Below, piece after piece: positions 22,164 through 55,683 of a DNA stretch of 64,000 bases (positions within the stretch are counted from its first letter, which is position 1; the number at the start of each line of letters is the position of its first letter). Under the pieces are notes generated by a model. That model was not told the DNA's origin and ran no database searches. It worked only from the letters and a program-made list of their open reading frames with translations. The position numbers and the translations under genes were made by a program. The stretch comes from Candidatus Micrarchaeota archaeon (GTDB lineage: Archaea; Iainarchaeota; Iainarchaeia; Iainarchaeales; JAGVWC01), in contig JAZDJR010000014.1 of NCBI GenBank assembly GCA_043803815.1, positions 1 through 64,000 on the forward strand. Reading direction: 5' to 3'.

Positions 22164-22267
22164 GTGCATCACTCTTTTTTCCCAGGTTTTTTTTGCTGGA
22201 CAAGCAAAAAAAAGCTGCCGGGGAACTTGAATTCATCCGCCATTTTTTCACCCATTAAATTTAATTT

Positions 22268-41600: not shown

Positions 41601-41715
41601 AACCAACACTATCTGCAATCAGGGATTAAAACCATTCGCCAAAGCTGACCAATAAACCCAAATTCAGCGCCGCAGGCCGACGAGACGGACGGTTAAAAAT
41701 TTTAAAAATTAGTAT

Positions 41716-41956
41716 TCCCCTCTCCAGGATTTGCACCAGGGACCTTCCGGTCGCCGCACGTCCCAAAGGGACATTAGGCCATCCGCTTTTGGCGGATATT
41801 ATTCCTCGGGTTTCCCGTTTTTGGCTTTCGCCAAAAAGGGCCCTTTCAAGCTTTCGCTTGAAACGGGTTTCTTTGAACCCGAGGCGCGTTTCTTTTCTTT
41901 CGAAAAGAAAGCCGTTCTTCTACAGCCGGACGCTCTACTAGCTGAGCTAAGAGGGG
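41716..41956 (-). tRNA. tRNA-Tyr(GTA) with 168-nt intron (41752-41919)
   Basis: Exons 41920-41956 and 41716-41751 give a 73-nt cloverleaf with C1-G72 and TCCGG-CTGTAG|A-CCGGA; BHB-like junction. Confidence 0.88.
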
Positions 41957-41957
41957 T

Positions 41958-42890
41958 CTATGAATTATGCCTTGGGACGGTTTTTAAATGCTTTTTGGGG
42001 GTGAAAACGCGTTCAAAGAGCCAGGGCCAGGCCGCGGAAACCCAAAGGCCCGCACAGAAAAAAACGAGAAATTGTTCCATCGAAGAAGGAAGTTTTAAGG
42101 CGGCAAAAACCAGTATTGCGGTGATAATTAATCCCACAACGGTTTTTTTGGCTTGGTTTTTCCGGTTTTGGGCGGATTGCACAAACCCCGCTTTTTGAAC
42201 CCAAAAAAATCCCCCGTAAAATCCCAAGACAACGGCCGTGAGTAATGGCGGGTTAATCCAAACCAAAAGAACTATCGCCAAAACCAAGGTCAGCAAAAAC
42301 CCGAGCTCGTCGTCGAGTTTGGATAGCTTGATTCCTTTTTTTTCCAGGCGCAGGTGCGTTTGCCAAGCCGCCCAGCCCACCAATAATCCGACAACGGTTC
42401 CCGCAACTACGTCGGAAAAAAAATGCGCGCCCAAAACAAGGCGCGACAAATCAACCAGTATAATCAAAAGAATTCCCAAAACCAGCCAGTGATTTTTTTT
42501 CAGTTTTTTGATTTGCGAAACCGGCTTTAAAAAAAACAAGGTCATGGAACCGATGATTCCCGCGTGGCCGCTTGGAAAACTATACGGACTTTCCCCAAGC
42601 CCAGAAACCAGACTGTTTTCAGGGGCAACGAAAAACTGTAGGGCCGTCGGCCGCGGGCGCATGAAAGCGGCTTTGAGCGCACCGATGACAACCGAAGTGA
42701 ACACAATGAGGTTAACCATCCAAAACGATTCTTTTTCACGCGAGTTCCAGTACAAAATGCACGCGATGGCAAACCAGAAACCGGGGTGGCCAAGATACGT
42801 TATCCAGTGGAAAGCGGGTTCCAAAAAGCCGAGGCTGCCTTGGACCGAGGTTAAGACCGCGTTGTCAAAGGACTGAATTAGTTCGAACAT
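41958..42890 (-). CDS. PAP2 family membrane phosphatase
   Basis: KxxxxRPRP, SFPSGH and SRLVLGAHFFSDV motifs. Confidence 0.9.
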   Translation of the reverse strand: MFELIQSFDNAVLTSVQGSLGFLEPAFHWITYLGHPGFWFAIACILYWNSREKESFWMVNLIVFTSVVIGALKAAFMRPRPTALQFFVAPENSLVSGLGESPYSFPSGHAGIIGSMTLFFLKPVSQIKKLKKNHWLVLGILLIILVDLSRLVLGAHFFSDVVAGTVVGLLVGWAAWQTHLRLEKKGIKLSKLDDELGFLLTLVLAIVLLVWINPPLLTAVVLGFYGGFFWVQKAGFVQSAQNRKNQAKKTVVGLIITAILVFAALKLPSSMEQFLVFFCAGLWVSAAWPWLFERVFTPKKHLKTVPRHNS

Positions 42891-42939
42891 AACCTATACA
42901 AAGAGCGGTTATACCAATATAAATTATTCTCGAAAACGT

Positions 42940-43173
42940 TCAGATTTTTCTTCGCAGTTTTTCGTATTCTTCTCTCGTGATTTTGGTTTGTTTCAGTATT
43001 TCGTTCAAAAGCCAGATGTTCAGGTCTTCGTTTCCATGCACCGGAATAACGGTTTTTCTTCCGTCGGGATGGATATAACGGACGTGGCTTCCGACTTGGT
43101 GGATTCTTTGAAAACCCATTTTTTCCAGGAGTTTGCACAGTTCCTTGCCAGAAATCGGAATTAATTTTGGCCG
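42940..43173 (-). pseudogene. hicA: HicA toxin lacking a canonical start codon
   Basis: Own translation: RPKLIPISGKELCKLLEKMGFQRIHQVGSHVRYIHPDGRKTVIPVHGNEDL...; CGG where the Met is expected; in-frame TAA just upstream. Confidence 0.75.
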
Positions 43174-43218
43174 TTTACACCGTTATTTGAACTTTTTATT
43201 TGTTTCTTTCAAACGTTT

Positions 43219-43668
43219 TCACGCTTTTTTCGCGCTTTTCATGACGCGTTTCATGCCGGGAATCTTGATTTCCGAATAATCCACGACAACCCCGCAGGCT
43301 TTTAGGAGTTTTCTTGAGGCGTAGGCGCGCAAAAAATCCGCGACTTCTTTTTGCTCGCCTTTTTGCAAGGAGGGAATGGCGGAAATTTCGTTGATGACCT
43401 GGGAAACTTTTCGCGTATTAAGCTCTTTTAAAACGCCTGCGATTTCGTCTTCGGTTTTGCCGGCCTGAACTTGGTCCAAAACCGCGTCGAGTTTTTTGAT
43501 GTCCGTTATTTTGCCGAGGTTTTCCGCGATTTTTCGGTCCACGCTAAACGTCATGGAAGCCAAAAATTCGGCTATGGTGCGCGGGTCGGTTGCGGGTTCT
43601 ATTTTGAGTTTTTTAATCGCGGCCCAATCGTCATAATTGGCCACAAATTGGATGTATTGTTCGCTCAT
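43219..43668 (-). CDS. DUF2666-like archaeal protein
   Basis: IQFVANYDDWAAIKKLKI..IAEFLAS N-terminus; GGTGA RBS before ATG 43668. Confidence 0.65.
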   Translation of the reverse strand: MSEQYIQFVANYDDWAAIKKLKIEPATDPRTIAEFLASMTFSVDRKIAENLGKITDIKKLDAVLDQVQAGKTEDEIAGVLKELNTRKVSQVINEISAIPSLQKGEQKEVADFLRAYASRKLLKACGVVVDYSEIKIPGMKRVMKSAKKA

Positions 43669-43713
43669 GGTTTCACCCGCTCTAATGCCAAAACTTGAAT
43701 TATTTGAGTAATT

Positions 43714-43727
43714 GAAAGGTTTTAAAT
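43714..43727 (+). promoter_or_regulatory. Putative BRE/TATA promoter of tRNA-Thr(TGT)
   Basis: GAAAGG-TTTTAAAT about 27-40 nt upstream of the tRNA. Confidence 0.5.
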
Positions 43728-43753
43728 GAATCTGTGGGGAATTCTTTATCATT

Positions 43754-43827
43754 GCCGGTGAAGCATATCCTGGTTTTGCAGCGGTTTTGTAAACCGCAGG
43801 CTGAGGGTTCAAATCCCTCCACCGGCT
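43754..43827 (+). tRNA. tRNA-Thr(TGT)
   Basis: GCCGGTG/CACCGGC acceptor stem, GCGGT-TTTGTAA-ACCGC anticodon arm. Confidence 0.9.
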
Positions 43828-43997
43828 ATTTGTTCAATTTTATCCAAGTGCCCGAACCGGTTTCTTTTTTTGCCGTGTCAAAAAAAAGTTTCAGGGTATC
43901 CAAATTATAAAATCCGATTCGAGAATCATGCATGGGAAAAATAGCTCTTAAGCGAATAAGCCGTTTTGCCAGCCCGTCATTTCCGGTGAAACCGGAT

Positions 43998-44711
43998 TTA
44001 TTGGTCCGGCAGGCTTTCGAGGATATAACGCCAGGCCAGCAGTTTGTGGGCTTCAACAAGCTTAAAGTCCTCTAGGGTTTCGGTTTCAAACCGCGTTTTT
44101 TTGAAATCAATGTATTCCCTCAGCATTTGGGCGTCGCCGTCGCGGACCTGCTGTTCACTCAGGCCGGTTTCGTTTGCAATGACCGTGACGTTTTCAGGAG
44201 AAACAAAATTCTTGATTTGAATATTGGGAAGTTCCTGCTCCGCGAGCGCGATGGTTTCGTCAGGGGTCACGTTTTCGTCGGACAACAAGGAAACGAGTTC
44301 GTCCTGGATTATGCCAAGATGCGCGACGAGTGCGAATACCGCGGTTTCCTTTTGCAAAGCGTTCATTACGTCTATGTTGTTTTCGCTTTTTTGGAGCGTC
44401 TCATACAACGGCGTTTCTTTTTGCATTATCCAAAGCACTTCTTCCTCGTTGGAAACCGCAAGCGCGTATAATCTTGCGTATTCGGCCTCGTGGTCCAGCG
44501 GCGGCGCGGTTTGCTGCATGGTTGCCACCAAATCGGCGGTTTGTGCGTTCATGTCCGCCAGTCCTGCGTGAACATTGTCTGAAAAAGTTTTGGCCATTGT
44601 TGCTCCGATTCCGCTGTTTTTTTGTGTCGCTAAAAATAACGCGATTCCGGCCAATACGATAATTGCAACGGCAAGTCCAGCGATTATCCACTGGTCTTTG
44701 GAAAGTTTCAT
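43998..44711 (-). CDS. Hypothetical N-terminally anchored helical protein
   Basis: 237-aa ORF with one N-terminal TM. Confidence 0.7.
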   Translation of the reverse strand: MKLSKDQWIIAGLAVAIIVLAGIALFLATQKNSGIGATMAKTFSDNVHAGLADMNAQTADLVATMQQTAPPLDHEAEYARLYALAVSNEEEVLWIMQKETPLYETLQKSENNIDVMNALQKETAVFALVAHLGIIQDELVSLLSDENVTPDETIALAEQELPNIQIKNFVSPENVTVIANETGLSEQQVRDGDAQMLREYIDFKKTRFETETLEDFKLVEAHKLLAWRYILESLPDQ

Positions 44712-44761
44712 GGCAGAGTAAGGACGAAAAAGTATTTTAGGGAGTCGGTTGAAAGTTAATC

Positions 44762-45631
44762 ATGGCTTTTGAAATCGGGATACTCGCGGCGTTTGGCGCA
44801 ATGATTTGCTGGGGACTGGGGGATTTTTTCATCCAGCGTTCCACAAGAAAAATCGGTGACGTGCAGTCTTTAGCCTGGATTGGGTTAATCGGCGCGGTCC
44901 TCTTATTGCCGTTTGTAATCGGTGATTTGCAGTTATTGGTCGTTAAGCAAAACCTGTGGTTTTTGGCGGCTTTGGGTGCACTGGGTTTTGCAATTTCCTT
45001 GGTCACTTTTGAAGGATTCAAGCAGGGAAAACTTTCGGTAGTCGACGTCATTTTGGAAATCGAATTGCCGATTACGATTGCGTTTGGAATCGTTTTTCTG
45101 TCCGAAACCGTTTCGCTAATCCAACTGGCCATCATTTCCTTTGTTTTTGTTGGAATCGTATTGGTCGCCCTGCCGGTTTTTTCGCTTAAAGAATCGTTTC
45201 AAAAACTCGAAAAAGGCGCGCTGCTGGCCATTGTTGCTGCTTTGGGAATGGGTGCCATCAATTTTTTGACCGGGGTCGGCGCCAAAACCGTTTCGCCTTT
45301 TTTGGTGATTTGGGTTCCCTGGGTCATCATGGCGGTCATTTCGCTGTTCATTGTCTGGCGACGCGAAGGCTTCCAAAACTTTTTCAAAAACGCGGCCCAA
45401 AACAAAAAACTGATTGCCTGCGAAAGCGTTTTGGACACCGCCGCGTGGATGCTGTTTGCCATTGCGTTAGTCCGCCATCCGGTTTCGATTACAACCGCAA
45501 TCACCGAAAGCTATCCTGCATTGGCGGTGCTTTTAGGGGTTTGGTTTAACCGCGAAAAAGTGCAACGCCACCAATTGGCGGGAGCGGGAATGGCGATTGT
45601 TGCCAGCATCTGCCTTGGGTTTTTGGTTTAG
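44762..45631 (+). CDS. EamA/DMT family transporter
   Basis: About 10 TM in a two-repeat layout, CWGLGDFF, FLSETVS and FNREKV loops. Confidence 0.88.
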   Translation: MAFEIGILAAFGAMICWGLGDFFIQRSTRKIGDVQSLAWIGLIGAVLLLPFVIGDLQLLVVKQNLWFLAALGALGFAISLVTFEGFKQGKLSVVDVILEIELPITIAFGIVFLSETVSLIQLAIISFVFVGIVLVALPVFSLKESFQKLEKGALLAIVAALGMGAINFLTGVGAKTVSPFLVIWVPWVIMAVISLFIVWRREGFQNFFKNAAQNKKLIACESVLDTAAWMLFAIALVRHPVSITTAITESYPALAVLLGVWFNREKVQRHQLAGAGMAIVASICLGFLV

Positions 45632-45672
45632 CCCGATTGGTACACCCTTTCGGGTGCAGGCGTGCACTCCGC

Positions 45673-45705
45673 ATATGTGTCCCAGCTGCGCTGGGACGGT
45701 AATAT
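45673..45705. repeat. tRNA-associated hairpin element, copy 1
   Basis: ATAT-GT-GTCCCAGC-TGC-GCTGGGAC-GGTA-ATAT; 27/33 identical to 52391-52423. Confidence 0.8.
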
Positions 45706-45710
45706 TTTTT

Positions 45711-45890
45711 TGCCCTTGCCGGGAGTTGAACCCGGGTCTCAACCGCACTCCCTGTTGATAATTTTTTCCAAGGTTTTTTGCGATCCGATTTTGCCAAAAA
45801 GGCAAAATGAGCCCATTCGAGCTTGCTCGAATCGGGCAGCAAAAAAGTTGTTTGAGAGGGTTGTATCCTTGGCCGCTAGATGACAAGGGC
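45711..45890 (-). tRNA. tRNA-Glu(CTC) with 107-nt intron (45746-45852)
   Basis: GCCCTTG/CAAGGGC acceptor stem; CAACC-CTCTCA|C-GGTTG; CTCT/GGAG central BHB helix. Confidence 0.88.
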
Positions 45891-45928
45891 GATTACGAAT
45901 TAGGCCTCAAATGCTTTTTTATGGGTTT

Positions 45929-46450
45929 TCATTTGGCCAGTTTGAACTCGGCTACGGTTTTCCAAACCATGTGTTGAGGCGTGTTTTTAAGCAAGGCCAA
46001 TTTGTCAAAAACTCCCCCTTCCGGCATTTGGCTTTGGGCGGCTTGAATCATCGGCTGTTTGGACGCAAGGTCAAAGTCGCCGTAAATCATCGTAAAATGC
46101 GGCATGAATCCGCGCTTGTCCGACCGGCCAAAGACGGCTTCGCTTTTGGCTCTGCAATCAAACAGTTCTTTCGAATCTTTTACCCTGATAAAAACGCATC
46201 GCACAAAATCATCCATGTGCTCGACCTTGGAAAAAACAGCGGCAATTGGCTTGGTTTGATTGGCAAGCCGCTTTGTTTTTTCAACCAGTTCTTTTTCGCG
46301 GTTTTCATCCTGCGGAATCTGGACAAGAAGCGAAACATGCGGTTCGAAAAAAGGAGCGTTGTATTTTCGGCTTAATCTGTCGATAATTTTTTTGAGTGGT
46401 GCGCGCGTTTTTTTGTCCGGCAAAAGCCAAACGTGATATTCGTTTTGCAT
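45929..46450 (-). CDS. 2H phosphoesterase, cyclic phosphodiesterase (CPDase)-like
   Basis: Two HxS/T motifs (FEPHVSL, FMPHFTM) and a YHVWLLP N-terminus as in plant Appr>p CPDase. Confidence 0.8.
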   Translation of the reverse strand: MQNEYHVWLLPDKKTRAPLKKIIDRLSRKYNAPFFEPHVSLLVQIPQDENREKELVEKTKRLANQTKPIAAVFSKVEHMDDFVRCVFIRVKDSKELFDCRAKSEAVFGRSDKRGFMPHFTMIYGDFDLASKQPMIQAAQSQMPEGGVFDKLALLKNTPQHMVWKTVAEFKLAK

Positions 46451-46467
46451 AAGCCAAACCGGATTAG

Positions 46468-46881
46468 TTATTGGCCGGGAACTGCGCCGGCGGTTGCCGC
46501 GGGCGGCAGGCGAAACTCGATTGTGATGTCCTGGTTCAAGGTCAAGGAATCGATTCCTTGGGTGAATTCTTCGCCGTTTACAAACGTTCCCATCTGGCGG
46601 TCGGATGTGGAGTGCAATTCGTTGACGCCGGTGACTTTTTTTCCATTGGCTTGCAAACTGATTTGCAATTGGGCCATTTGGCTTAACGCCGAAAACGCAT
46701 TGGTTCCTTTCGGAAATTCCTGGAACTTGTCAACGACAATCAGGTTGCGGTCCAAAGCGCGCAGGTGAACCTCGGCCGTGGTTTTGGCTTCGGGAGTGGA
46801 AGAACCGTTATTGGAAGAAGTGCATCCGGCAAGGACAATCGAAACGGCAATCAAAAGCAAGGCCGCGCTTTTCCAGTTCAT
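46468..46881 (-). CDS. Lipoprotein with DUF4430-like domain
   Basis: LAGC lipobox; NAFSAL..KVTGVN..FVNGE..GIDS..ITIEF. Confidence 0.65.
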   Translation of the reverse strand: MNWKSAALLLIAVSIVLAGCTSSNNGSSTPEAKTTAEVHLRALDRNLIVVDKFQEFPKGTNAFSALSQMAQLQISLQANGKKVTGVNELHSTSDRQMGTFVNGEEFTQGIDSLTLNQDITIEFRLPPAATAGAVPGQ

Positions 46882-46922
46882 AGGCACTAATAGGAAAAAG
46901 CGGTATAAAAAACCCACCCAAG

Positions 46923-47303
46923 TTATGTAGCAAACTAACCAACGTTTTTGGGTTTTCGTATGGAAAAAAAACTGATAAACCGATTGACTTTGTCCAAAAA
47001 TTTTCGGATAATCTGCAACTGCAATTTATCGCTGGCTTATGGGATACCGACGGCGGAAAGTCGGGAAAAACATACGCTTTTTGCAATTCATCCAAAAAAA
47101 TGGTTTTATATGTAAAAGATTTTATGGAAAAAAACCAAATCAGCACCCGATTTTACGAACAGTATAAAGGGCCATTCACTTGGTATTTGCTCTTTGTTCA
47201 AATTCGGGACAAAGAAAAATTTCTTAATTTATTCCCGCTAAAAAACACGAGGAAGTATGGTGTGCCGGTGGGGAGATTTGAACTCCCGACCCCTACATTA
47301 TGA
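46923..47303 (+). pseudogene. 5'-truncated LAGLIDADG homing endonuclease fragment
   Basis: Own translation includes FGFSYGKK and FIAGLWDTDG; in-frame stop at 46881, no first motif; reads into tRNA-Met antisense. Confidence 0.75.
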
Positions 47304-47334
47304 GTGTAGTGCTCCACCGCTGAGCTACACCGGC
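47263..47334 (-). tRNA. tRNA-Met(CAT), probably elongator
   Basis: GCCGGTG/CACCGGC acceptor stem, CTACA-CTCATAA-TGTAG. Confidence 0.9.
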
Positions 47335-47383
47335 AAAAGAATCCGTTACTCAATTTTCGGCGAAAGCATTTTTAAGGGTTTAT

Positions 47384-48043
47384 TCAGCGCATCCGGCTTT
47401 TGACTTCGATTCCGGGGTTGTATAAAATCAGCCGGTCCGCGTATCCGATGAATAATCCGGTTTCGATGACTCCGGGAATTTCCTTGGCCGAAAAATTGAT
47501 GTCTTCGGGAGAATAAACCTCGTCGATTTTGATGACGGCAAGATAATTTCCGCTTTCGGTCAAAAACGGCCGCTGGCTGACGGTTTTTAGGCCGCAAGGT
47601 CCCAGCTTTTCAAGCGCAAGCAGGGTGCGTTTGTATCCGAACGGCGTGATTTCAACCGCCATGGAACCGTTCAGTTTTTTCACGAAATTTTTTTTCTCGC
47701 ACACCACCACCAGTTCGTCCGCGCTTTGGCAAATCATCTTGTCGCGCACCAAGGAATGCGAATCGGTTTTCAAAAAATTGTACTGCTCGTCTATCTGGTC
47801 GGCAAATTCGATGGCTAAATCGATTTCGCTTTCGTCAATCGACACAACCGGAAGATGCAGTTCGGTCGCGATTTCCGCCAGATGCATGGAAGTCGGAACA
47901 AAAAAAATCGACAAATCCTGCTGTTCCAGCCTCCAAACCAATTGGCGCAAAAACTGCTCTCCCAGGTGGCTGGTTCCGATGGAAACCACGGAACCGTTTT
48001 TGACATACTTGGCAATCAGGCCTTCAATCGTGGACTCGTCCAT
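47384..48043 (-). CDS. rpiA: Ribose-5-phosphate isomerase A-like protein (divergent)
   Basis: VEITPFG, TESGNY and IPGVIETGLF present; active-site motifs altered. Confidence 0.75.
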   Translation of the reverse strand: MDESTIEGLIAKYVKNGSVVSIGTSHLGEQFLRQLVWRLEQQDLSIFFVPTSMHLAEIATELHLPVVSIDESEIDLAIEFADQIDEQYNFLKTDSHSLVRDKMICQSADELVVVCEKKNFVKKLNGSMAVEITPFGYKRTLLALEKLGPCGLKTVSQRPFLTESGNYLAVIKIDEVYSPEDINFSAKEIPGVIETGLFIGYADRLILYNPGIEVKSRMR

Positions 48044-48115
48044 AGCCAAAATAAGGATTATTGGACTATAAAAGAAATTCGATTAAAAAATGGAAATTGG
48101 GCTGAAAACGGGAAA

Positions 48116-48952
48116 TTACTTTTTTTTGCCCGTTTTTCCCTGGTGGCGAATAAACGCGTTAACCGCATCCATGATTTCAATCGGAACCGCAATTACGACC
48201 GTATTGGAAGCTGTTGGCCCCAGGCCGTCGATGGTCTGCAGGGTTCGCAATTGCATGGCGCCGGGCATTTTGGCCATGATTTCGGCGGCCTTGGCCAGGT
48301 TGTCGGCTGCCATGCGGTCCCCTTCGGCCTTGATAATCGTCGCGCGTTTTTCGCGTTCGCTTGACGCTTGTCGGCTCATCAATCGCTTTAAGTCTTCGGG
48401 CATGTCGATGTCCTGCATTTTGATGCTTGTGACCTCGATTCCCCAGGCAATGCTTTCTTTTTCGACAATCGTTTCAATCTGCTTTCCGATTTGTTCGCGC
48501 TCCGCCAAGACTTCGTCCAGCATCTGTCCGCCGACGACATCGCGCAAAGCGGTTTGCGCGTACTGCGAAACCGCGTATTCGTAATCCTGCACGTTAATGA
48601 TTGCTTTGGAAGCATCCACTACCTTGAAATACAATACCCCGTTAATCGTAACCGGAACATTGTCTTTGGTAATCGCCTGCTGGCGCGGAATATCAATCGT
48701 GGTTATCCGCATGTCGATAATCCGAACGCGCTCGATAAACGGAAAAATAAAATTCAAGCCCGCCTGCAACGTGCGGTCCATTCGGCCCAAAGAAAATATT
48801 ACGCCGGTCTGGTATTGCTGGACAATGCGAATCGACAAAGCCAAAAGCAAAATAATATAAATCGGAAGAAAAATCCAAAGTCCCAAAGATAAAAGCGCAA
48901 CCGCAATCGCCGCCAAAATCAGGCCGATAACCAGTTTGGGGCCGTTGTTCAT
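48116..48952 (-). CDS. SPFH/stomatin (band 7) protein
   Basis: QQAITKDNVPV, AQTALRDVVG and AMQLRTLQT. Confidence 0.92.
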   Translation of the reverse strand: MNNGPKLVIGLILAAIAVALLSLGLWIFLPIYIILLLALSIRIVQQYQTGVIFSLGRMDRTLQAGLNFIFPFIERVRIIDMRITTIDIPRQQAITKDNVPVTINGVLYFKVVDASKAIINVQDYEYAVSQYAQTALRDVVGGQMLDEVLAEREQIGKQIETIVEKESIAWGIEVTSIKMQDIDMPEDLKRLMSRQASSEREKRATIIKAEGDRMAADNLAKAAEIMAKMPGAMQLRTLQTIDGLGPTASNTVVIAVPIEIMDAVNAFIRHQGKTGKKK

Positions 48953-49127
48953 ATGGTATTCTTCCAGCAGAGAATTTAAAAAACCAAATCCAAAAACGGG
49001 TCTAAGTATCCAAAAACGCAGGCCACGCGGCGGGGTGGGTGCGAACAGTTAAAACCGGTTTTCAGCGGAAACGAGGTGCGTGCAAAATGACTTATTCCAA
49101 AATACGGCTATTTTATTGCTGATTGAA

Positions 49128-50201
49128 ATGCGTGTTGGTTTTGGGGATGCTGCTATTCGCACCGAGTTTTTTGAACTGGCTAAAGCAGGAGCGAGCTGCA
49201 AGACTTGGCAGGTATTCAGCCAATTGCTAAAAATGAGACGAACAAGATTGGAGCGTTTTCGGTATGGTCAGCAACTGTTTTCAGAGGAATTATTTGAAAA
49301 ACTCTTGGGATTTTTGCCTGGAGATGAACGGGAAAAATTTCGAAAATCCACTGTTTTTAACTCTGATAATTGGGGGCAAGTCAAGGGAGGAAAAAGGACG
49401 GCGAAATTGCATCCCGAGAATTATGAGCGGGCGCGTCAATTTGCAATTAATGCAACAAAAGAAAAAGCAAGATTGCAAGAAGATAACTTTGATTTGACAA
49501 TGCCTCTTTCAGAGGAGTTGTGCGAGTTGGTGGGCGCGATTATCGGAGACGGCTGCATTAGCGGATTTAAGACCAAATATGGTCACTATCAGAATCATGT
49601 TTCCATAACCGGCCACAGTGTTTTGGACAAAGATTATTTGGGTTATATGGGCAGTCTTTTGGGAAAGTTTTTTGGGATTAAAGTAACAACGCGTTTTCGA
49701 AAAACCAAAAAAGCAATGGTTGTTTTTGTTCATTCCAAACTCGTTTTTTCTTTTTTCACCAAGCGTTTCGGATTTGTTCCCGGTCCAAAGGCATTCACGG
49801 TAAAAATCCCGGAAGAAATTTTGAAATCTGAAGAGCGATTTGTTTTTTCAACGATTCGAGGAATATACGATACCGACGGCTGTATTTTTTTTGACAGGCG
49901 AAAACCATACGGCAGACCGTACCCTCGAATTTCACTGCAAATAGTAAGCAAACCGTTGGCCGAACAATTGCATGGTTTTTTACGGCGGTATTTTTCCGTT
50001 CGTTTCGGAAAAAACCGCAATCGCAACTCGTATTTCGTTGAAATTTACGGCCATGAACAATTAGCAAAGTGGATGAACTTAATCGGGTTTTCTAACCAAA
50101 AACATTTGAATCGATATTATGCTGGAATGAAGAATAGCCCGTGGGGAGATTTGAACTCCCAACCCCGTCATGGTCAGACAACAAGTTATGTATACCAATG
50201 A
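49128..50201 (+). CDS. Free-standing two-motif LAGLIDADG (DOD-type) homing endonuclease
   Basis: ELVGAIIGDG and IRGIYDTDG motifs, WGQVKGGK N-terminal motif, IGFSN C-terminus; last 66 nt are antisense to tRNA-Thr. Confidence 0.88.
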   Translation: MRVGFGDAAIRTEFFELAKAGASCKTWQVFSQLLKMRRTRLERFRYGQQLFSEELFEKLLGFLPGDEREKFRKSTVFNSDNWGQVKGGKRTAKLHPENYERARQFAINATKEKARLQEDNFDLTMPLSEELCELVGAIIGDGCISGFKTKYGHYQNHVSITGHSVLDKDYLGYMGSLLGKFFGIKVTTRFRKTKKAMVVFVHSKLVFSFFTKRFGFVPGPKAFTVKIPEEILKSEERFVFSTIRGIYDTDGCIFFDRRKPYGRPYPRISLQIVSKPLAEQLHGFLRRYFSVRFGKNRNRNSYFVEIYGHEQLAKWMNLIGFSNQKHLNRYYAGMKNSPWGDLNSQPRHGQTTSYVYQ

Positions 50202-50230
50202 CGAGCAAAACCAGGCTATGCTTCACGGGC
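50136..50230 (-). tRNA. tRNA-Thr(GGT) with 21-nt intron (50172-50192)
   Basis: GCCCGTG/CACGGGC; CGTCA-TTGGTA|A-TGACG; canonical BHB. Confidence 0.9.
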
Positions 50231-50264
50231 GAATAGCTACTAAAAACCGCTTGGAAAATGCTTT

Positions 50265-51527
50265 TTAACCCATCATTTCAAGCAGTTTGGAAAGGCCGAC
50301 CAAGGAATTGGGCAAGTCAAATTGCCCTTTTTTTTGCAAGTCCTTGACCGTTACGGTTCCTTTTTTTTCCTCGTTTTCGCCGATAATCGCGAGAAAACGG
50401 ATTCCTTTTTTTTGGCAGTACTCCGAATTTTTGGACACGTTTCGAGACAATAAGTCAAACTCCGCATTAATTCCTGCTTGCCGGAAAGCGTCGGCCGCTT
50501 TTAACGCCAAAGCGGATTGTTTTTCCGTAAACGCCATGACCAGCACCCGGGATTTGGGTGGAACTTTTTTGTTTTGTTTTTCCAAAACATCGAGCAGGCG
50601 GTCAACGCCAAACGAAATTCCGGTTGCCGGCGTTGCTTGTCCGCCGTACAATTCCACGAGCTTGTCATAGCGCCCGCCGCCGCCGACACTCGGCCCCTGC
50701 TTGGTCTTGATTTCAAAAACAAATCCGGTATAATACTCCAGTCCGCGGGCCAATGACAAGTCCAGTTTTACCGCTTCGGTCAGATTGTTTTGCTTGACCA
50801 GTTCCAAAAGCTTTTCCATTTCTTCCATCGGCTTTTTGTTTTTCAAAACCGCCTTGATTTTTTTCAAATCCTTTTCCTTTAGCACTCCAAGGATTTTTTT
50901 GCCGATTCCGCATTGCTTTAATTCTTCCTCGACCTCTTTTTCCCCGATTTTGTCAAGCTTGTCGATAGAGCGAAAACAATCCGCAATTTTTTCCTTGGGA
51001 ACCCCGCAGGAAAATGCGAGTTCTTCCAAAAGCGGGCGAGAATTCAACACCACCCAATAATCGATTTGCAATTCCTGCATGACCTTGCATCCGATTTGCA
51101 GGCATTCAAAATCCGCCAAAATTCCGGCTGCACCTATAATGTCCACGTCGCATTGCGTGAACTCGCGGTAACGCCCAGCCTGCGGCCGGTCATAGCGGTA
51201 CACGGTTCCGATTTGGTAACGCTTAAACGGCTTGGGCAAAGTGGAATTTGAGGCAATTACCCTGCCCAAAGGAACGGTTAAGTCAAACCGCAATCCGAGT
51301 TCGCGGTCGCTTTTGTCCTTGAAATAATAAATCTCGTTTTTGATGGCTTCTCCGCCAGAACCTTTTTTTGCCAGCAACCCGAAATCTTCCACTATCGGCG
51401 TCTGCAAGGGCTCAAAGCCAAAACTTTCAAACACGTTTCTGCAGGTGTCTTCAATGGACTGCTTGACGCGCATCTGGTCAGGCAAAAAATCGCGCATTCC
51501 CCGAACCGTCTGAAATTTTTCCGTCAT
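50265..51527 (-). CDS. hisS: Histidine--tRNA ligase
   Basis: RGMRDF, LRFDLTVP, GRYREFTQ, RGLEYYTG and GGGRYD. Confidence 0.96.
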   Translation of the reverse strand: MTEKFQTVRGMRDFLPDQMRVKQSIEDTCRNVFESFGFEPLQTPIVEDFGLLAKKGSGGEAIKNEIYYFKDKSDRELGLRFDLTVPLGRVIASNSTLPKPFKRYQIGTVYRYDRPQAGRYREFTQCDVDIIGAAGILADFECLQIGCKVMQELQIDYWVVLNSRPLLEELAFSCGVPKEKIADCFRSIDKLDKIGEKEVEEELKQCGIGKKILGVLKEKDLKKIKAVLKNKKPMEEMEKLLELVKQNNLTEAVKLDLSLARGLEYYTGFVFEIKTKQGPSVGGGGRYDKLVELYGGQATPATGISFGVDRLLDVLEKQNKKVPPKSRVLVMAFTEKQSALALKAADAFRQAGINAEFDLLSRNVSKNSEYCQKKGIRFLAIIGENEEKKGTVTVKDLQKKGQFDLPNSLVGLSKLLEMMG

Positions 51528-51529
51528 TT

Positions 51530-52030
51530 TTATCTTCCTCGCCCCGTTCGCCTTTGTTGTATTTGTGTTAATAGAATGGTTTTCAATCTTGACAGTGCAG
51601 GATCACTAAAATTGTATTTTTGTTGCAAGTTCAAAAGACCCATCGGCAATGTTTCCGGCCTTTCCACCATTTTTTGAAAAACCGGCAATGATTGGATTCC
51701 TTTTTCGGCAACCATTGCAACGTGCTGGGGGTTGCCGCGCGATTGGCCTTCTGCCAGTTCGCTAACCAGAATCCTGGCAAATCCATCGTCTGGGCATTGC
51801 TCTTTTAATTTGGAAACCAAAGCGCCGAGATTTTTTGGAGTAATAAATTCCCTTTTGATTGCTTCCCCAAAAACTCCCTGTTGGGTGGGGGAAAGCCGCG
51901 GAAACTTATTTCTTAATTGGTCGGAAAGAATGCTCTGTTCGGTTTGTCTTGGGTTTCCTCTTTGCGTTTGTCTTGGCATAATCCGACTCCGGCTACTAGA
52001 ACCACGTCCTGCCTGAGAATATCTTACCAT
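51530..52030 (-). CDS. Hypothetical protein with basic R/Q-rich termini
   Basis: 166-aa ORF from ATG 52030 with GGTGA RBS; no recognisable family. Confidence 0.55.
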   Translation of the reverse strand: MVRYSQAGRGSSSRSRIMPRQTQRGNPRQTEQSILSDQLRNKFPRLSPTQQGVFGEAIKREFITPKNLGALVSKLKEQCPDDGFARILVSELAEGQSRGNPQHVAMVAEKGIQSLPVFQKMVERPETLPMGLLNLQQKYNFSDPALSRLKTILLTQIQQRRTGRGR

Positions 52031-52163
52031 TAAATAATCACCCGCCTTTGAAAAAGCAAAGTTCGATTTTCTTTTCTTTCTTTTGAATAAAGCCGATTTT
52101 CTTTTCTTTTCGCACCTTGCGCGTTTTTCCCAGGTTTTTTTGCATAAGCAAAAAAAGCTGTAG

Positions 52164-52238
52164 GGCGGCAACCGAGATTTGAACTCGGGTTCCAAGCGCC
52201 ACAGGCTTGTGTCCTAACCAGGCTGGACGATTGCCGCC
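52164..52238 (-). tRNA. tRNA-His(GTG) with encoded G-1
   Basis: GGCGGCAA/TTGCCGCC acceptor stem; CAAGC-CTGTGGC-GCTTG. Confidence 0.92.
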
Positions 52239-52390
52239 GCACGATTGCGTACGTGCGCTCCGCGCACTTTGTGGTCGCAAGCGACCACAAGAGAGCTGCA
52301 TAGTCTTTTTTCCCCATGCTTTTTGGCTGTGGCCAAAAAGGCTGCTCGGGCGATTGCCGCCACAGCGCCCTTTCGATGGCGCGTGCCGAG

Positions 52391-52423
52391 ATACGTGTCC
52401 CATTTGCAATGGGACGGTAGTAT
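52391..52423. repeat. tRNA-associated hairpin element, copy 2
   Basis: ATAC-GT-GTCCCATT-TGC-AATGGGAC-GGTA-GTAT. Confidence 0.8.
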
Positions 52424-52716
52424 GCTTTTATGGAAATGCTCGCTTTGCTCAAATCCCCGATAATATACGGCTGACTCGGCGAAACGTAAAAGTAGGTTTT
52501 TGGCATTGTGACCGTCTGATAAGTGATAATTGAGTTAAAAATAGTGTCATCAGTTTCGATAATGAAGTCGATCACTTATCATAGACAATCAAACTAATTA
52601 CTGTGAACGAGTGTTTTAAAAGGTTTGGATAGTCCTTAACCAGTTGCTTTTTCCCAAGGGTCGTTTTTTTGGGTGAAAACGGCTTTTTAAGCTTTATTTA
52701 GGGGTTTTTTGGTAAT

Positions 52717-53631
52717 ATGGATAAAAAATTGCGGCAAAATTACGAAAAAGCGGGCGCTATTCACCAAAGCGCGGTCGCGTTTGCCCAGAAAAAACTCAAG
52801 CCCGAAACCCCGCTGCTTGGATTGGCCGTTGAAATCGAGGATTTTATTTTTGGCCGGTTAAAAGAGGAAAAACTCGACGGCGGCCTCGCGTTTCCCTTGA
52901 ATCTATCCTTAAACAATGTTGCCGCGCATTTTACCCCCGGAACTGGCGACAAAACCGTTTTGGGAAAAGACGACGTTTTAAAAGTGGACATCGGCGTTCA
53001 CGTGAAAGGCTGCATTGCCGACGGAGCGTTTACATTCAATTATTCCAATAAGCACGAAAAACAAATCGAGCTGAACAATTCGATTTTGCAGTCCGGCTTG
53101 GATTCAATCAAAGTCGGTTCCCCGATTTCGGTTGTCGGAAACGCGATTGGAAAAATAATGGAAAAAACGGATTTCAAAACCATTGAAAACCTGACCGGAC
53201 ACGGCCTAGGCGTATACCTCCAGCACGACGAACCCCAGATTCCAAATCAGCCCAACAACCTGAAAACCAAAATCACGGACGGAATGGCATTAGCCATCGA
53301 GCCGTTTGTCACAACCGGCCGCGGATTCGTTGCCGAGGCAAGCCAGGTTGAAATATTTTCCATTGAAGAGCCAAAGCCGGTCCGCGACATGAACGCGCGA
53401 AAACTATTGGATGTCATCGGAAAGCACTGGCCTTCCCTTCCCTTTGCGGAACGCCAATTGGCCAAAGAAACCGAGTTAAGCGAATTTGCGCGAAAAGTCG
53501 GCTTGCGCGAATTATCCCGCAACAAGATTTTGCACGCTTACCCCGTTTTGCAGGAGCAAAAAGACGCGATTGTCACGCAAAGCGAAAAAACCGTCCTAAT
53601 CGACGGCGACGAAGTCAAAATCATCAACTGA
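52717..53631 (+). CDS. map: Methionine aminopeptidase type II
   Basis: AFPLNLS..AAHFTP, DIGVHVKG..ADGAFT, NLTGH, AIEPF and the type II helical insert. Confidence 0.95.
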   Translation: MDKKLRQNYEKAGAIHQSAVAFAQKKLKPETPLLGLAVEIEDFIFGRLKEEKLDGGLAFPLNLSLNNVAAHFTPGTGDKTVLGKDDVLKVDIGVHVKGCIADGAFTFNYSNKHEKQIELNNSILQSGLDSIKVGSPISVVGNAIGKIMEKTDFKTIENLTGHGLGVYLQHDEPQIPNQPNNLKTKITDGMALAIEPFVTTGRGFVAEASQVEIFSIEEPKPVRDMNARKLLDVIGKHWPSLPFAERQLAKETELSEFARKVGLRELSRNKILHAYPVLQEQKDAIVTQSEKTVLIDGDEVKIIN

Positions 53632-53736
53632 ACGGTTTGAAAGGAAAAAATTTCCATCCTTAAAATAACCACATTTATTTAAAACAAAAGCAAAAGAAGT
53701 GTATAGTTAACCAATCAGAACAGCCAAACAAAAGCT

Positions 53737-53892
53737 GGTCCCGTAGTATAGCCTGGATAGTATACAAGCTTGCGGTAACCTTTTAGGAAAAGGTTAGCGA
53801 AAAAAATACGTCGTCCTGTTTTCAACAGGACAGCGGTATGTTCGCAAAGTTGCAATGAGCTTGGGACCTGGGTTCGAATCCCAGCGGGATCG
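53737..53892 (+). tRNA. tRNA-Arg(GCG) with 82-nt intron (53776-53857)
   Basis: GGTCCCG/CGGGATC; CAAGC-TTGCGG|A-GCTTG; TTGC/GCAA BHB helix. Confidence 0.9.
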
Positions 53893-53955
53893 CACACTTT
53901 TTCCCCGGGCTTTTTTAATAAAAAAGGCCGGGATTGGAATCCCAGCGGGATCGCA
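53876..53955 (+). repeat. 19-bp direct repeat of the tRNA-Arg 3' end (att-like)
   Basis: GAATCCCAGCGGGATCGCA at 53876-53894 and 53937-53955. Confidence 0.85.
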
Positions 53956-53972
53956 AAATTTTTGGTGAAAAA

Positions 53973-54308
53973 GTGGACGCCATTTCATGGAATGATTTTG
54001 AAAAGGTCGGCCTTTGCGTGGGCACAATCATTAAAGTGGAAACTTTTCCGGAAGCCAAAAAACCCGCGTACAAGATTTGGGTTGATTTTGGAGAATACGG
54101 AGTCAAAAAATCCAGCGCTCAAATTACTCATTGGTACACGAAAGAAGAACTGGTTGGAAAGCAAATTATCGGCGTAATTAATTTTCCCGTCAAGCAAATT
54201 GCCAATTTTGCGTCCGAGTTTTTGACCGCTGGGTTTGTACGGCCCGACGGAAAAGTTGTTCTGGCAGTTCCGGAAAAAGAAGTTCCCAACGGTTCTAAGC
54301 TTGCTTAA
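53973..54308 (+). CDS. csaA: CsaA/Trbp111 tRNA-binding protein
   Basis: [33 protein letters not shown]; GTG start after GGTGA. Confidence 0.9.
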
Positions 54309-54387
54309 AAAATCGAATAATCCAGCGAAAATTCTTTTATCGGTCTATTTTTTGTTGGACTCCGCAAAACTAAATAAAAAAAGCTTT

Positions 54388-54472
54388 TGCAGGAGGGCGG
54401 ATTCGAACCGCCGAAAGGCACTAAGCCGGTAGCCCCTGGAGCTACTGGAATTGACCGCTATCCGACTCCTGC
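54388..54472 (-). tRNA. tRNA-Leu(CAG)
   Basis: GCAGGAG/CTCCTGC, GTAGC-TCCAGGG-GCTAC, long variable arm. Confidence 0.85.
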
Positions 54473-54528
54473 GGTATGTGAAATACCGGCCAAAAACCCT
54501 TAAATACCGCATATTCCTTTGAATTAGC

Positions 54529-55683
54529 ATGGAAGCCCAAAACCAAAAAGCGCCGATATTCGGTTTTTTGGCGTTTTTGTTCTCTTTTTTGGCGGCGTTT
54601 TTGTTTTTCAATGTCGGCTTGTCCACCAACGATTTTTTTTCCTTCAGTTTTTCCGGCAAAATCGCCAAAATCCTTTCGGTTAATTTTGCCTTGTTTTTAT
54701 TGTCGGTTCCCTTGCTGGGCGTTTTGGCCAGCGCGGCAAGTTTTTGGATTGAAAAAAAAATCGCGTGGCTTTCTTTGGGAATCGGAAGCGCCGTCGGATT
54801 GGGATTGTCAGTCGTTGTTTTTCCGAGTTTGGCGGATTTTTTTTGGGTCGGGGTTTTTTTCGTAATCGGCGTTTTGGTTTCAATCCAGCAAGTGTACATG
54901 AAAAAAGACGAGTTAAAGCACTGGATAACGTTTCGCCTGGCCAAAATAGGAGTGCAACGGCATTTGGCTTTGGTTGCCGTCGGCTTAATCCTGTTTTCCG
55001 CGGCGACCATTTTGCCGCAAAAAAGCATGTTTGCCGAAAAGTTTGAAAACGATTTGGCGGATACCATTTTTTCGGGCAATTCGACCGGAAACCTCAAAAC
55101 CCAGCTGTCCGATTCGCTTGCGGAAACGTCCGTTCAAAGCCAGCGCCAATTGCTCAACCAGCTTGTTTTGCTTCCGCAGTACACCGCGCTTCGCGATGAC
55201 ATGCAAAACACCAAAACCCAGGCGTTTGTTTCCGTCATGGGGCAATTGCAGTCCACAGTGAATTCGGATTCCTACAAAAAAACAATTCAGGACCAAATCG
55301 AACAGCAAACCGCAGGCGTCACCGTGAATCCTGCCGAAGTATTCAACAAAGTCAAGGAAAACTTTCCGCTGTTTACGGCTTTCGGGGAATGGCTATGGCT
55401 CATTTTCGGCGTCGGCTTGGCCAGCATGTTCTTGTTTTTTTCCTCGTTTATTTTAGCTCCATTGGGAATGGTTTACGGTTTTTTGCTGAACAAAATTTTT
55501 AAAACCGCGTGGAAACCGCAGGCCGTTTCGGCTTCTCCGCAAGCGGTTTTTGCGGCGCCCCTTGCGGCTCCCGAAACCCCAAAGCCCGTTTCGCCAGCTT
55601 ATTCGTCGTCGATTTCACCGGACGAAATGCAAAAACTAAAAGACGAACTCAAAAAACAGCTGGAACAAAGCCGGCCGATTTGA
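54529..55683 (+). CDS. Multi-pass membrane protein of unknown function
   Basis: About 5 N-terminal TMs, a soluble helical loop and a C-terminal TM. Confidence 0.75.
   Translation: MEAQNQKAPIFGFLAFLFSFLAAFLFFNVGLSTNDFFSFSFSGKIAKILSVNFALFLLSVPLLGVLASAASFWIEKKIAWLSLGIGSAVGLGLSVVVFPSLADFFWVGVFFVIGVLVSIQQVYMKKDELKHWITFRLAKIGVQRHLALVAVGLILFSAATILPQKSMFAEKFENDLADTIFSGNSTGNLKTQLSDSLAETSVQSQRQLLNQLVLLPQYTALRDDMQNTKTQAFVSVMGQLQSTVNSDSYKKTIQDQIEQQTAGVTVNPAEVFNKVKENFPLFTAFGEWLWLIFGVGLASMFLFFSSFILAPLGMVYGFLLNKIFKTAWKPQAVSASPQAVFAAPLAAPETPKPVSPAYSSSISPDEMQKLKDELKKQLEQSRPI

Follow-up and report, generated by a model that had tools for sequence, protein, structure and literature searches.

An apparently undescribed family of small folded repeats at tRNA genes and in tRNA introns of Candidatus Iainarchaeum

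In the 64,000-nucleotide (nt) stretch of archaeal DNA analyzed here (the window), two copies of a 33-nt hairpin, hereafter hairpin B, lie near tRNA genes. Copy 1 (positions 45673 to 45705, plus strand) ends 5 nt from the 3' end of tRNA-Glu(CTC), which is encoded on the opposite strand (45711 to 45890, minus strand) and carries a 107-nt intron as called by aragorn -i. Copy 1 comprises a 4-bp outer stem, a GT/GGTA region, an 8-bp stem, and a TGC loop, and folds into a hairpin on either strand. Preceding it on the plus strand (45653 to 45672) are a second hairpin, A (45653 to 45668; GGTGCA-GGCG-TGCACT, as parsed from the sequence), a 1-nt linker, and a 3-nt foot, P (CGC, 45670 to 45672), which is complementary to GCG within the loop of hairpin A. 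A further small plus-strand hairpin, CACCC-TTTC-GGGTG (45643 to 45656), overlaps hairpin A and lies 12 nt past the TAG stop codon of an EamA-type gene (44762 to 45631). Copy 2 (52391 to 52423, plus strand) is located 153 nt upstream of the 5' end of tRNA-His(GTG) (52163 to 52237, minus strand) and antisense to it. Its upstream part (52365 to 52390, plus strand) consists of hairpin A (52365 to 52382; GCGCC-CTTTCGAT-GGCGC), the linker GTGCC, and the foot GAG, which can pair with CTT or TTC in the loop only via G-U wobble. The segment between tRNA-His and copy 2 (52238 to 52364, plus strand) is a mosaic of other hairpin modules, including one at 52239 to 52272 that recurs behind a tRNA-Ala gene on contig C8 and a T-run/A-run palindrome at approximately 52300 to 52345.

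The two copies match at 27 of 33 positions, and the six that differ (4/30, 13/21, and 14/20) make up three compensatory pairs in the same fold, as reported in a first-pass annotation of this DNA; its statement that a CCCTTTCG-containing hairpin and GCGTGC precede each copy was likewise borne out. The pattern of conserved letters matched exactly twice in the window, at these two copies, versus no match in 100 dinucleotide shuffles, and across the whole 1.08-Mb assembly it matched only there. We built a covariance model, R1, from five copies and counted copies at E ≤ 0.01. R1 scored copies 1 and 2 at 54.6 and 55 bits, respectively, and a copy within the intron of tRNA-Arg(GCG) (53806 to 53839, plus strand) at 26 bits (E = 2e-4). 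This third copy, also listed at first pass, is real but diverged: it belongs to a second subtype, with a GTC/AKCG internal loop, whose other members in this genome lie 53 to 71 nt behind a tRNA-Ala gene on contig C4 and another on C29 and, in one case, on contig C36. It is sense to its host tRNA (53737 to 53893, plus strand) and, in a fold of the anticodon arm plus intron, forms the distal tip of the rod-like intron. The true splice motif, a TTGC/GCAA helix between 3-nt bulges, sits at the intron base. Hairpin B itself was rejected as an archaeal bulge-helix-bulge motif, which has two 3-nt bulges on opposite strands, 4 bp apart, whereas the two bulges of B are each 1 nt long, share a strand, and are separated by 2 bp. 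A GTCCC-N3-GGGAC stem in the tRNA-Tyr intron (41760 to 41772), which the annotation had set beside these copies, does exist, but we left it out of the family because it is a 5-bp hairpin only and was missing from the R1 matches even at E ≤ 10.

Hairpin B is the conserved core of a larger cassette of approximately 60 to 75 nt, rather than an element of ~33 nt as first annotated. In 5'-to-3' order on the plus strand, the cassette comprises hairpin A (5 to 7 bp), a linker of 1 to 5 nt, the 3-nt P complementary to the loop of A, and B. B is built of a 4-bp outer stem, a constant bulged A, two pairs that are usually G-U/U-G, a bulged G, an 8-bp stem, and a 3-nt loop. Pairing holds in 97.5% of cells across 42 distinct copies, both partners vary at 10 of the 12 pairs, and 114 cells are doubly changed versus at most 14 with slid partners; the proposal of a structured, covarying repeat was thus upheld. 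Hairpin A is conserved on both arms: 56 of 95 copies have at least six Watson-Crick pairs, whereas shuffles yield 0.8 per 95. The A loop and P are complementary in 59 of 83 copies; 2,000 shuffles averaged 15.6 such copies and never exceeded 26. At least 11 different trinucleotide pairs are in use. Conserved letters (TAYGTG on the 5' side and CGGTARTA on the 3' side) number approximately 13 in total, most of them paired.

At E ≤ 0.01, R1 matched five times in the window's genome, and the scan of relatives recovered further copies: 17 of 151 genomes of the same order had between 1 and 42 matches each, including all six genomes of family f16. Looser filters gave 61 matches in genome G085, the highest number per genome, and 38 in G076, all noncoding by ORF calls. 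As a measure of the model's specificity, 686 kb of sequence from more distant relatives (80 metagenomic HisRS loci) gave no match. Within the reach of these searches, the repeat family occurs only in a single order of DPANN archaea, recorded under the name Candidatus Iainarchaeum. No Rfam family matched over the elements at the gathering score, at E ≤ 10 across window positions 41000 to 55000, or at E ≤ 1 in four loci of relatives, in keeping with the first-pass view; the pistol, hairpin, hammerhead, twister, hatchet, and HDV ribozymes and the C/D and H/ACA sRNAs were rejected, having no covariance-model match. The hairpin is real and belongs to a small folded repeat family that is apparently undescribed, one family within a mosaic set of small hairpin repeats.

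Association with tRNA genes depends on lineage. In the window's genome, all five R1 matches are in tRNA flanks, no more than 160 nt from the tRNA, or in an intron, and approximately 9.7% of non-ORF bases lie within that distance (P ~ 9e-6 for five of five). The same holds for 11 of 16 copies in G018 versus 9 of 60 in the high-copy genomes G085 and G076, where 50 of 60 loci are without any tRNA and cassettes fill spacers right behind stop codons, B often starting 21 to 28 nt past the ORF end. Thus, the claim that the element occurs only beside or inside tRNA genes stands for this genome but not for the family as a whole: the association is strong here and in G018 and does not hold in high-copy relatives. 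The presence of the element within long tRNA introns extends to relatives, with copies in introns of tRNA-Arg (this genome), tRNA-Gly (G018), tRNA-Leu and tRNA-Ala (G085), and tRNA-Thr (G076).

As had been suggested, the family behaves as REP/MITE-type dispersed repeats. Several loci of one genome share identical or near-identical copies. Copies in general are single or lie 51 to 206 nt apart with repeated filler in between; modules join in varying orders and orientations, and A-runs flank many cassettes. The only filled/empty comparison is of G085 with its congener G042, behind an orthologous stop codon: G085 has a cassette there and a spacer of ~187 nt, whereas the G042 spacer is only ~45 nt. 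At the distance between these genomes (flanking genes ~75% identical), insertion and deletion are indistinguishable and exact ends are not placeable. Direct repeats of 16, 17, and 32 nt, which copy the upstream gene or tRNA 3' end, flank 3 of the 72 loci examined, and most copies have no flanking duplication. At all three loci, the left repeat ends exactly at the start of hairpin A; direct repeats of at least 16 nt were seen at 2 of 122 shifted controls, so that there is no clear excess.

With confidence and doubt in about equal measure, we interpret the family as dispersed repeats of a REP/BIME-like, structure-dependent kind, surviving in RNA that is transcribed but discarded. The cassette would be nonautonomous duplicative DNA, most likely acting like bacterial REP/BIME or RPE elements, and its copying, or its toleration by the host, would depend on the folded single strand. 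It would persist at sites where RNA made from the insert is later discarded or is not translated: directly behind tRNA 3' ends or stop codons, ahead of tRNA 5' ends, at bulge-helix-bulge intron tips, and within the rRNA spacer. In the window's genome only a few copies are left; they are old and diverged, and nearly all of them lie at tRNA genes. The data demonstrate the family with its fold, covariation, range of copy numbers, and placement, along with a single presence/absence case; from these we infer mobility as the cause of the spread, a single-stranded intermediate, and survival at safe sites. The first-pass observation is confirmed as a whole, and its interpretation as an element accumulating at tRNA loci is partly supported. 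Repeats beside tRNA genes and inside tRNA introns offer a handle on how such introns grow.

Known dispersed repeats resemble the cassette in part. REPs are described in PMC3733652 as 20- to 40-nt palindromes with a tetranucleotide tag, GTAG or CGTC, at one stem end, the CGTC type having no dedicated transposase. B is likewise a short imperfect palindrome (33 nt) that is extragenic, present in many copies, and probably transcribed; its copy number varies strongly between relatives, it associates with other motifs in mosaics, and, like the CGTC type, it has no dedicated transposase nearby. It differs in its archaeal (DPANN) host and in having no GTAG or CGTC head in a defined position: GTAG occurs only within GGTAGTA, in a minority of copies, and CGTC is confined to the second subtype, where its position is not the defined stem foot. 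Further differences are its fixed internal-loop core (GT/GGTA, two bulges) with an outer 4-bp stem, its coupling to an upstream hairpin via the complementary foot, the rarity of inverted dimers, and the strong tie to tRNA genes in low-copy genomes. In a MITE census, DPANN genomes are among the MITE-densest archaea (PMC11602168). Like MITEs and Rickettsia palindromic elements, the cassette is small and noncoding, has no transposase, is gained and lost between relatives, and sits at gene borders. However, it has no terminal inverted repeats besides the hairpin itself and no fixed target duplication, and none of the five R1 matches in this genome is within a protein-coding gene. A classical MITE was rejected, flanking repeats being confined to the three loci above and variable in length (16 to 32 nt), as was a CRISPR repeat, there being no regular array with unique constant-length spacers. 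In Thermoproteales, similar sequence recurs in transposed bulge-helix-bulge introns of unrelated tRNAs (Fujishima et al. 2010, summarized in PMC4090602), which argues for spread of intron material at the DNA level by an unspecified mechanism. Sequence recurs in the same manner here, but the shared unit is the cassette at the distal intron tip and not the intron itself, the cassette also occurs outside tRNAs, and the host group differs.

The main alternative, a possible but on the whole doubtful one, is an RNA module acting in cis. Carried in the transcript of the upstream tRNA or mRNA, or in an intron, the A-P-B fold would affect the RNA that contains it; it might, for example, block 3' exonucleases, mark a processing site, or bind a protein, and its spread would be secondary. 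Orientation bears on this in both directions. Of the cassettes located between co-directional genes, 15 are sense and 3 antisense, a bias also compatible with RNA function, and 9 of 11 tRNA-linked copies in G018 are sense. However, both main window copies are antisense to their nearest tRNA, whereas the intron, C4, and C29 copies are sense (the mixed orientation recorded at first pass); relatives carry antisense copies upstream of tRNAs and inside an intron, and divergent genes, with no 3' end between them, flank 8 of the 33 informative copies. The fixed spacing of B, ~21 to 28 nt behind tRNA 3' ends and stop codons, favors the RNA module, and some positions look conserved rather than transient, which speaks against a repeat. 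A and B lie 25 nt behind the 3' end of tRNA-Gly(TCC) in two genera (G018 and G076) with differing stem sequences, the position being kept with compensatory changes, and in G066 and G056 an orthologous tRNA has two antisense copies at the same places. Some letters are also invariant beyond pairing needs: all 89 copies have the bulged A and the U of the second wobble pair, although C could pair there too, and 82 of 89 have the bulged G. Pairing of loop to foot is typical of folded RNA, but the 1- to 5-nt linker between A and P is sterically short for a true pseudoknot crossing a 6- to 7-bp stem, and the 8-bp stem has no excess of G-U over A-C mismatches (10 versus 9). Moreover, 134 of 151 genomes of the order are without an R1 match at E ≤ 0.01 (with strict filters and many incomplete genomes), which argues that the element is not a general part of the processing machinery. 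Nanoarchaeum equitans has dicistronic genes of a tRNA plus a C/D box sRNA. In a similar way, cassettes that follow a tRNA immediately in the sense orientation are candidate structured RNAs that could use the tRNA promoter and 3' processing; the cassettes differ in having no C/D or H/ACA boxes and in being many-copy, in both orientations, and also behind protein genes.

We consider it improbable that the cassette is an end or miniature derivative of an IS200/IS605 or REP-RAYT single-strand DNA transposon, in which an HUH tyrosine transposase would bind the bulged hairpin and the 3-nt foot would serve as a guide pairing with an upstream cleavage site. IS200/IS605 ends and REP-RAYT systems have a bulged hairpin with 5'-foot nucleotides that pair with a nearby site. 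B shares this layout, with extrahelical bases and a foot complementary to a site 14 to 17 nt upstream, resembling the guide/cleavage-site logic of IS608, and the transposase-free CGTC-type REPs offer a further parallel. d(GNA) loops are stable, and the minus-strand triloops of this kind that the annotation had emphasized are compatible with the plus-strand loops of B (TTC in 46, TGC in 12, and TTT in 6 of 89 copies), TTC and TGC reading GAA and GCA on the minus strand; no strand asymmetry backs that idea, however, and orientation in G018 tracks neighboring genes, not the two chromosome halves. The supposed cleavage site also lies in the loop of the conserved, two-armed hairpin A, unlike flanking target sequence. 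The HUH/TnpA partner sought on the earlier suggestion did not appear: Y1_Tnp (PF01797) was not found in G018 (a complete genome, 99% complete, with 16 copies), G085, G056, G013, or G021. It occurs in 43 of 151 genomes without relation to presence of the element, which many of them do not have, and the only full-length PF01797 copy in the window's genome is on contig C21, where R1 reports nothing. TnpB (PF07282) exceeded the cut-off in none of five genomes (G018, G085, G076, G042, and G000); neither protein was found in the copy-rich G018 and G085. On these grounds, a GTAG-type REP with RAYT and an IS200/IS605-derived miniature element were rejected, as was a SINE-like retroelement, reverse transcriptase (RVT_1) being found in none of the same five genomes.

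Very improbable is a new small self-cleaving or otherwise catalytic RNA at gene 3' edges and in introns. Many known small ribozymes ride on repeats, and the compact fold, the conserved unpaired letters beside helices, the loop-to-foot pairing, and the placement flush with tRNA 3' ends would suit one; against this, the Rfam searches at E ≤ 10 (window) and E ≤ 1 (relatives' loci) gave no ribozyme match, antisense copies exist, and few letters are conserved, most of them paired. Chance similarity or ordinary terminator hairpins, suggested by the T7 after copy 1 and GCTTTTAT after copy 2, can be dismissed almost entirely: they are contradicted by the shuffles (0 of 100) and by dozens of covarying copies in other genomes, most copies have no T run after them, and tRNA 3' ends are served by a separate T-run palindrome module.

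The two 33-nt stretches singled out in the first-pass annotation, which we call copies 1 and 2 of hairpin B, were recovered on the forward strand of the window at 45673–45705 and 52391–52423. As had been claimed, their six differences make up three compensatory pairs within one fold. Within it, the outer stem has 4 bp and the inner one 8 bp, with GT facing GGTA between them and a TGC loop at the tip. A pattern built only from the letters shared by the two copies matched twice in the window (copies 1 and 2) versus not at all in 100 shuffles, and it found no further match in the 1.08-Mb, 36-contig assembly. On folding, the hairpin was formed by either strand (z-scores −2.2 to −3.7). The claim that no Rfam family covers the elements was upheld, since nothing lay over them at the gathering score or at an E value of ≤10. 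Neighboring tRNAs were located by aragorn with introns allowed: tRNA-Glu (45711–45890, minus strand, 107-nt intron), tRNA-His (52163–52237, minus strand), and tRNA-Arg (53737–53893, plus strand), with an intron that spans a diverged copy of B at 53806–53839 (plus strand). Rfam added two tRNAs, at 43754 and 50136. Elsewhere in the assembly, aragorn predicted a tRNA-Phe with an 866-nt intron (contig C30:9017–9968) and a tRNA-Arg with a 287-nt intron (C33:2807–3187). Within the window, an intron-bearing tRNA that Rfam alone detected (50136–50230, minus strand) overlaps an ORF of 373 aa (49080–50201, plus strand) carrying a LAGLIDADG-like domain. The intron-bearing tRNA-Glu adjoins a 2H phosphoesterase gene (CPDase or 2′-5′ RNA ligase-like, 45929–46450, minus strand), which may be coincidence.

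The family occurs in one DPANN order. A DNA search of 41 genomes (the window's own and 40 relatives) returned short matches whose extent coincides with the hairpin, in a different family of this order. We then used a covariance model, R1, trained on the two window copies and three copies from G018, a genome of this order. In the window's own genome, both main copies reached an R1 score of 55 bits and the copy in the tRNA-Arg intron one of 26 bits (E = 2e-4). Contigs C29 and C4 each have a copy 53 to 71 nt past a tRNA-Ala gene (27.5 and 22 bits, respectively). Two weak matches were also returned, one to part of the stem and loop on C36 (E = 0.26) and another on C20 (E = 0.78). A second internal-loop type (GTC/AKCG) is shared by the copies in the intron and on C29, C4, and C36; a relaxed structural scan of the genome, noisy and missing both main copies, was used only for this subtype. 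At E ≤ 0.01, R1 matched 17 of the 151 genomes of the order, including all six of family f16, so that the covariance-model check suggested earlier carries the family beyond the original copies. Looser filters gave 61 matches for the 0.8 Mb of G085 and 38 for G076. When prokaryotes were scanned for the exact pattern, with each species represented by one genome, 91 stretches were found, and all eight stem pairs were present in 19 of the 80 examined. The record title was Candidatus Iainarchaeum or plain "archaeon" for 18 of these 19, and the remaining one, from a bacterial record, had just one of four outer-stem pairs. On viral contigs, none of three pattern matches forms the hairpin. R1 had no match in 686 kb from 80 metagenomic loci of more distant relatives, found via HisRS, among which the closest were 59% identical, below the level of strain comparison.

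The fold is supported by covariation. We aligned 47 copies (42 distinct) by fitting them to R1, which used little alignment freedom because copy length is almost uniform. Standard pairs filled 97.5% of cells, and 10 of the 12 pairs had changes on both sides. Double changes occupied 114 cells versus 3 to 14 when partners were slid, and none of 500 shuffles reached the covariation score. In 89 copies parsed position by position, the "internal loop" resolved into two further pairs, the first being G-T in 71, A-T in 11, and G-C in 2, and the second T-G in 69 and T-A in 20, with its T never replaced by C. On the 3′ strand these pairs are flanked by a bulged A (89/89) and a bulged G (82/89). Loops of B were TTC in 46 of the 89, TGC in 12, and TTT in 6. 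Mismatches in the 8-bp stem showed no asymmetry between strands (10 of the G-T type versus 9 of the A-C type), and therefore the sequence does not tell which strand folds. Likenesses to ORB, attC, and K-turn motifs were dropped, given the freely varying stems and the lack of integrase-adjacent arrays and of tandem G-A pairs. Together, these data identify the B family as a structure-constrained dispersed repeat.

The element had been described as a unit of about 33 nt, which proved too small: the repeated cassette also includes, upstream of B, a second hairpin (A) and a three-base foot (P). Hairpin A, with at least six Watson-Crick pairs and ending a few bases before B, was found at 56 of 95 distinct copies versus 0.8 per 95 shuffled. 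Its stems of at least 5 bp had 39 different sequences. P, the 5′ foot of B, was complementary to a trinucleotide within the A loop in 59 of 83 copies, compared with a mean of 15.6 in 2,000 shuffles (standard deviation, 3.3; maximum, 26), counts that are inflated by the relatedness of copies. At least 11 different trinucleotide pairs were used, and this variety argues for a real constraint. Given a linker of 1 to 5 nt, A and P could form a tight pseudoknot or else an alternative hairpin stacked on B. In copy 1 the pairing is present as GCG/CGC, and in copy 2 it is made by wobble pairs only.

Placement differed between genomes. The first-pass annotation had tied the element to tRNA genes, and this holds for the window's genome, where all five copies counted are tRNA-linked (5/5; P ~ 9e-6), and for G018, but not for G085 and G076. 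The single whole contig of G018 has 45 tRNA calls and 16 strong R1 matches, 11 of them within a tRNA or ≤160 nt from one, a zone holding ~9.9% of non-ORF bases there (P ~ 3e-8, which is too generous because the copies are clustered). Nine of these 11 copies are in the sense orientation relative to the tRNA, including three ~25 nt behind the tRNA 3′ end, one inside a tRNA-Gly intron, and one behind tRNA-Ala within an ORF-free 3.7-kb stretch that we take to be the rRNA operon; the other two are antisense, just upstream of the tRNA 5′ end. Arrays in G018 come within 0 to 2 nt of mature tRNA ends. In G085 and G076, by contrast, just 9 of 60 copies lay within or ≤160 nt from a tRNA, and 50 of the 60 loci had no tRNA call. 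The typical layout there is a stop codon, an A-run, A, P, B, an AT-rich module, another A-run, and the next start codon. By crude ORF calls, cassettes in codirectional spacers were sense in 15 cases and antisense in 3, with 8 more in divergent and 7 in convergent spacers. A promoter reading of the AT-rich module, which has a TATA-like stretch ~20 to 27 nt before the next ATG, was considered but not retained. Among the window copies, copy 1 fits the layout behind a stop codon, that of an EamA-type gene (44762–45631), and copy 2 fits the antisense position upstream of a tRNA.

Comparisons between relatives recorded both gain or loss and persistence. Behind one orthologous stop codon, G085 carries a cassette in a spacer of ~187 nt versus an A-rich ~45 nt in its congener G042, where the flanking genes are ~75% identical. 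At 3 of 72 loci the insert was bracketed by direct repeats (16 to 32 nt) copying the 3′ end of the gene or tRNA upstream, with A starting at the end of the left repeat each time; shifted controls had repeats of at least 16 nt in 2 of 122. Among the sequencing runs listed for 45000–54600 none was RNA, and the two DNA runs compared contained only a ~90%-alike relative and short identical contigs. One contig of run X1 skips 52362–52484, the span that includes copy 2, with unknown letters in between, and is too uncertain to count as evidence. Among sites compared for empty loci in genus g49, contigs broke at the repeats or were too diverged. An unrelated ~55-nt repeat (L135:2232–2285 in G085), with dozens of copies in G085 and G042, is also present or absent between their orthologous spacers. 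As to persistence, A plus B lie 25 nt behind tRNA-Gly(TCC) in G018 and in G076 with different stems, and antisense copies occupy the same two places at one orthologous tRNA in G066 and G056.

We give roughly even chances to the family being a duplicative element, similar to REP/BIME, whose copies survive in sequence that is transcribed and then discarded; the window copies would then be old relics retained at tRNA genes. REP families with GTAG or CGTC tags are known from bacteria (PMC3733652). A serious, though less probable, rival is that the cassette acts in cis as an RNA module, which is compatible with the repeat reading. A bolder proposal, which we consider unlikely, is that A-P-B stands for a novel class of folded nucleic-acid elements, which would multiply through single-stranded RNA or DNA without a known transposase. 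Insertion would occur at boundaries of RNA processing, namely at both ends of tRNAs, at the tips of introns, and at stop codons, and would thereby seed and inflate archaeal tRNA introns. Such a cassette may also have an effect on RNA itself, such as cleaving the tRNA or mRNA upstream of it at the 3′ edge or marking that edge. Single-strand transposition by an HUH-type enzyme, the partner first proposed, lacks support and appears very improbable. The Y1 transposase domain (PF01797) occurs in 43 of the 151 genomes, unrelated to whether the element is present, and was not found in G018, G085, G056, G013, or G021, calls for which incomplete genomes cannot show absence, G018 being rated 99% complete. 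In the window's genome, a full Y1 (IS200/IS605-type) frame lies at C21:1431–1790, a contig without an R1 match, and a partial one at C8:5–130. Neither TnpB (PF07282, over the cutoff) nor RVT_1 was detected in G018, G085, G076, G042, or G000. Catalysis by the element, likewise lacking support, is hardly to be expected.

The cassette bears on how archaeal tRNA introns originate, grow, and move; the review PMC4090602 summarizes intron transposition in Thermoproteales and calls the mechanism of intron transposition unknown. Searchable and conserved in fold, it is found in one DPANN order at the tips of introns, at tRNA ends, and downstream of ordinary genes, with copy numbers from 0 to >60, and offers a sequence and structure handle on filled versus empty sites, copying activity, and intron growth by repeat uptake. 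For annotation, it cautions that tRNA-adjacent "conserved structured RNAs" in these genomes may be repeats. A literature search of full article texts found no description of the family. A MITE census (PMC11602168) places DPANN genomes among the densest archaeal MITE hosts, and a 2025 tool paper (PMC12306157) reports REP-like palindromes in archaea with DPANN unmentioned.

Other modules accompany these tRNA genes. A palindromic module (CCAGG, T-run, short loop, A-run), probably a two-way oligo-T terminator, lies 6 to 12 nt behind tRNA 3′ ends; it was seen at 52130–52157, 53905–53926, and 22182–22214 and on C4, C18, and C29, and also within introns of tRNA-Leu (C18) and tRNA-Ser (C29). The tRNA-Arg 3′ end is repeated directly over 19 nt (53876–53894 and 53937–53955) around a 42-nt T-run/A-run palindrome. 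Across 53894–54376, an X1 contig from the ~90%-alike relative has 20 other letters between this end and the tRNA-Leu region, skipping the duplicated end and a tRNA_bind-domain gene (53934–54308). On C8, a tRNA-Ala 3′ end is likewise duplicated behind the gene, the two lying ~170 nt apart on either side of a B-like hairpin, as is a tRNA-Gln 3′ end in G085. The complement of the tRNA-His 5′ end (CGATTGCCGCC, ~52219–52231) recurs ~130 nt upstream (~52351–52363), just before the copy 2 cassette, and a chain of hairpin modules fills the stretch between. Finally, an identical 47-nt hairpin-forming repeat lies near four contig ends (C9:5735–5781, C11:12171–12217, C28:84–130, and C29:84–130) and is probably the end of a larger, assembly-breaking repeat.
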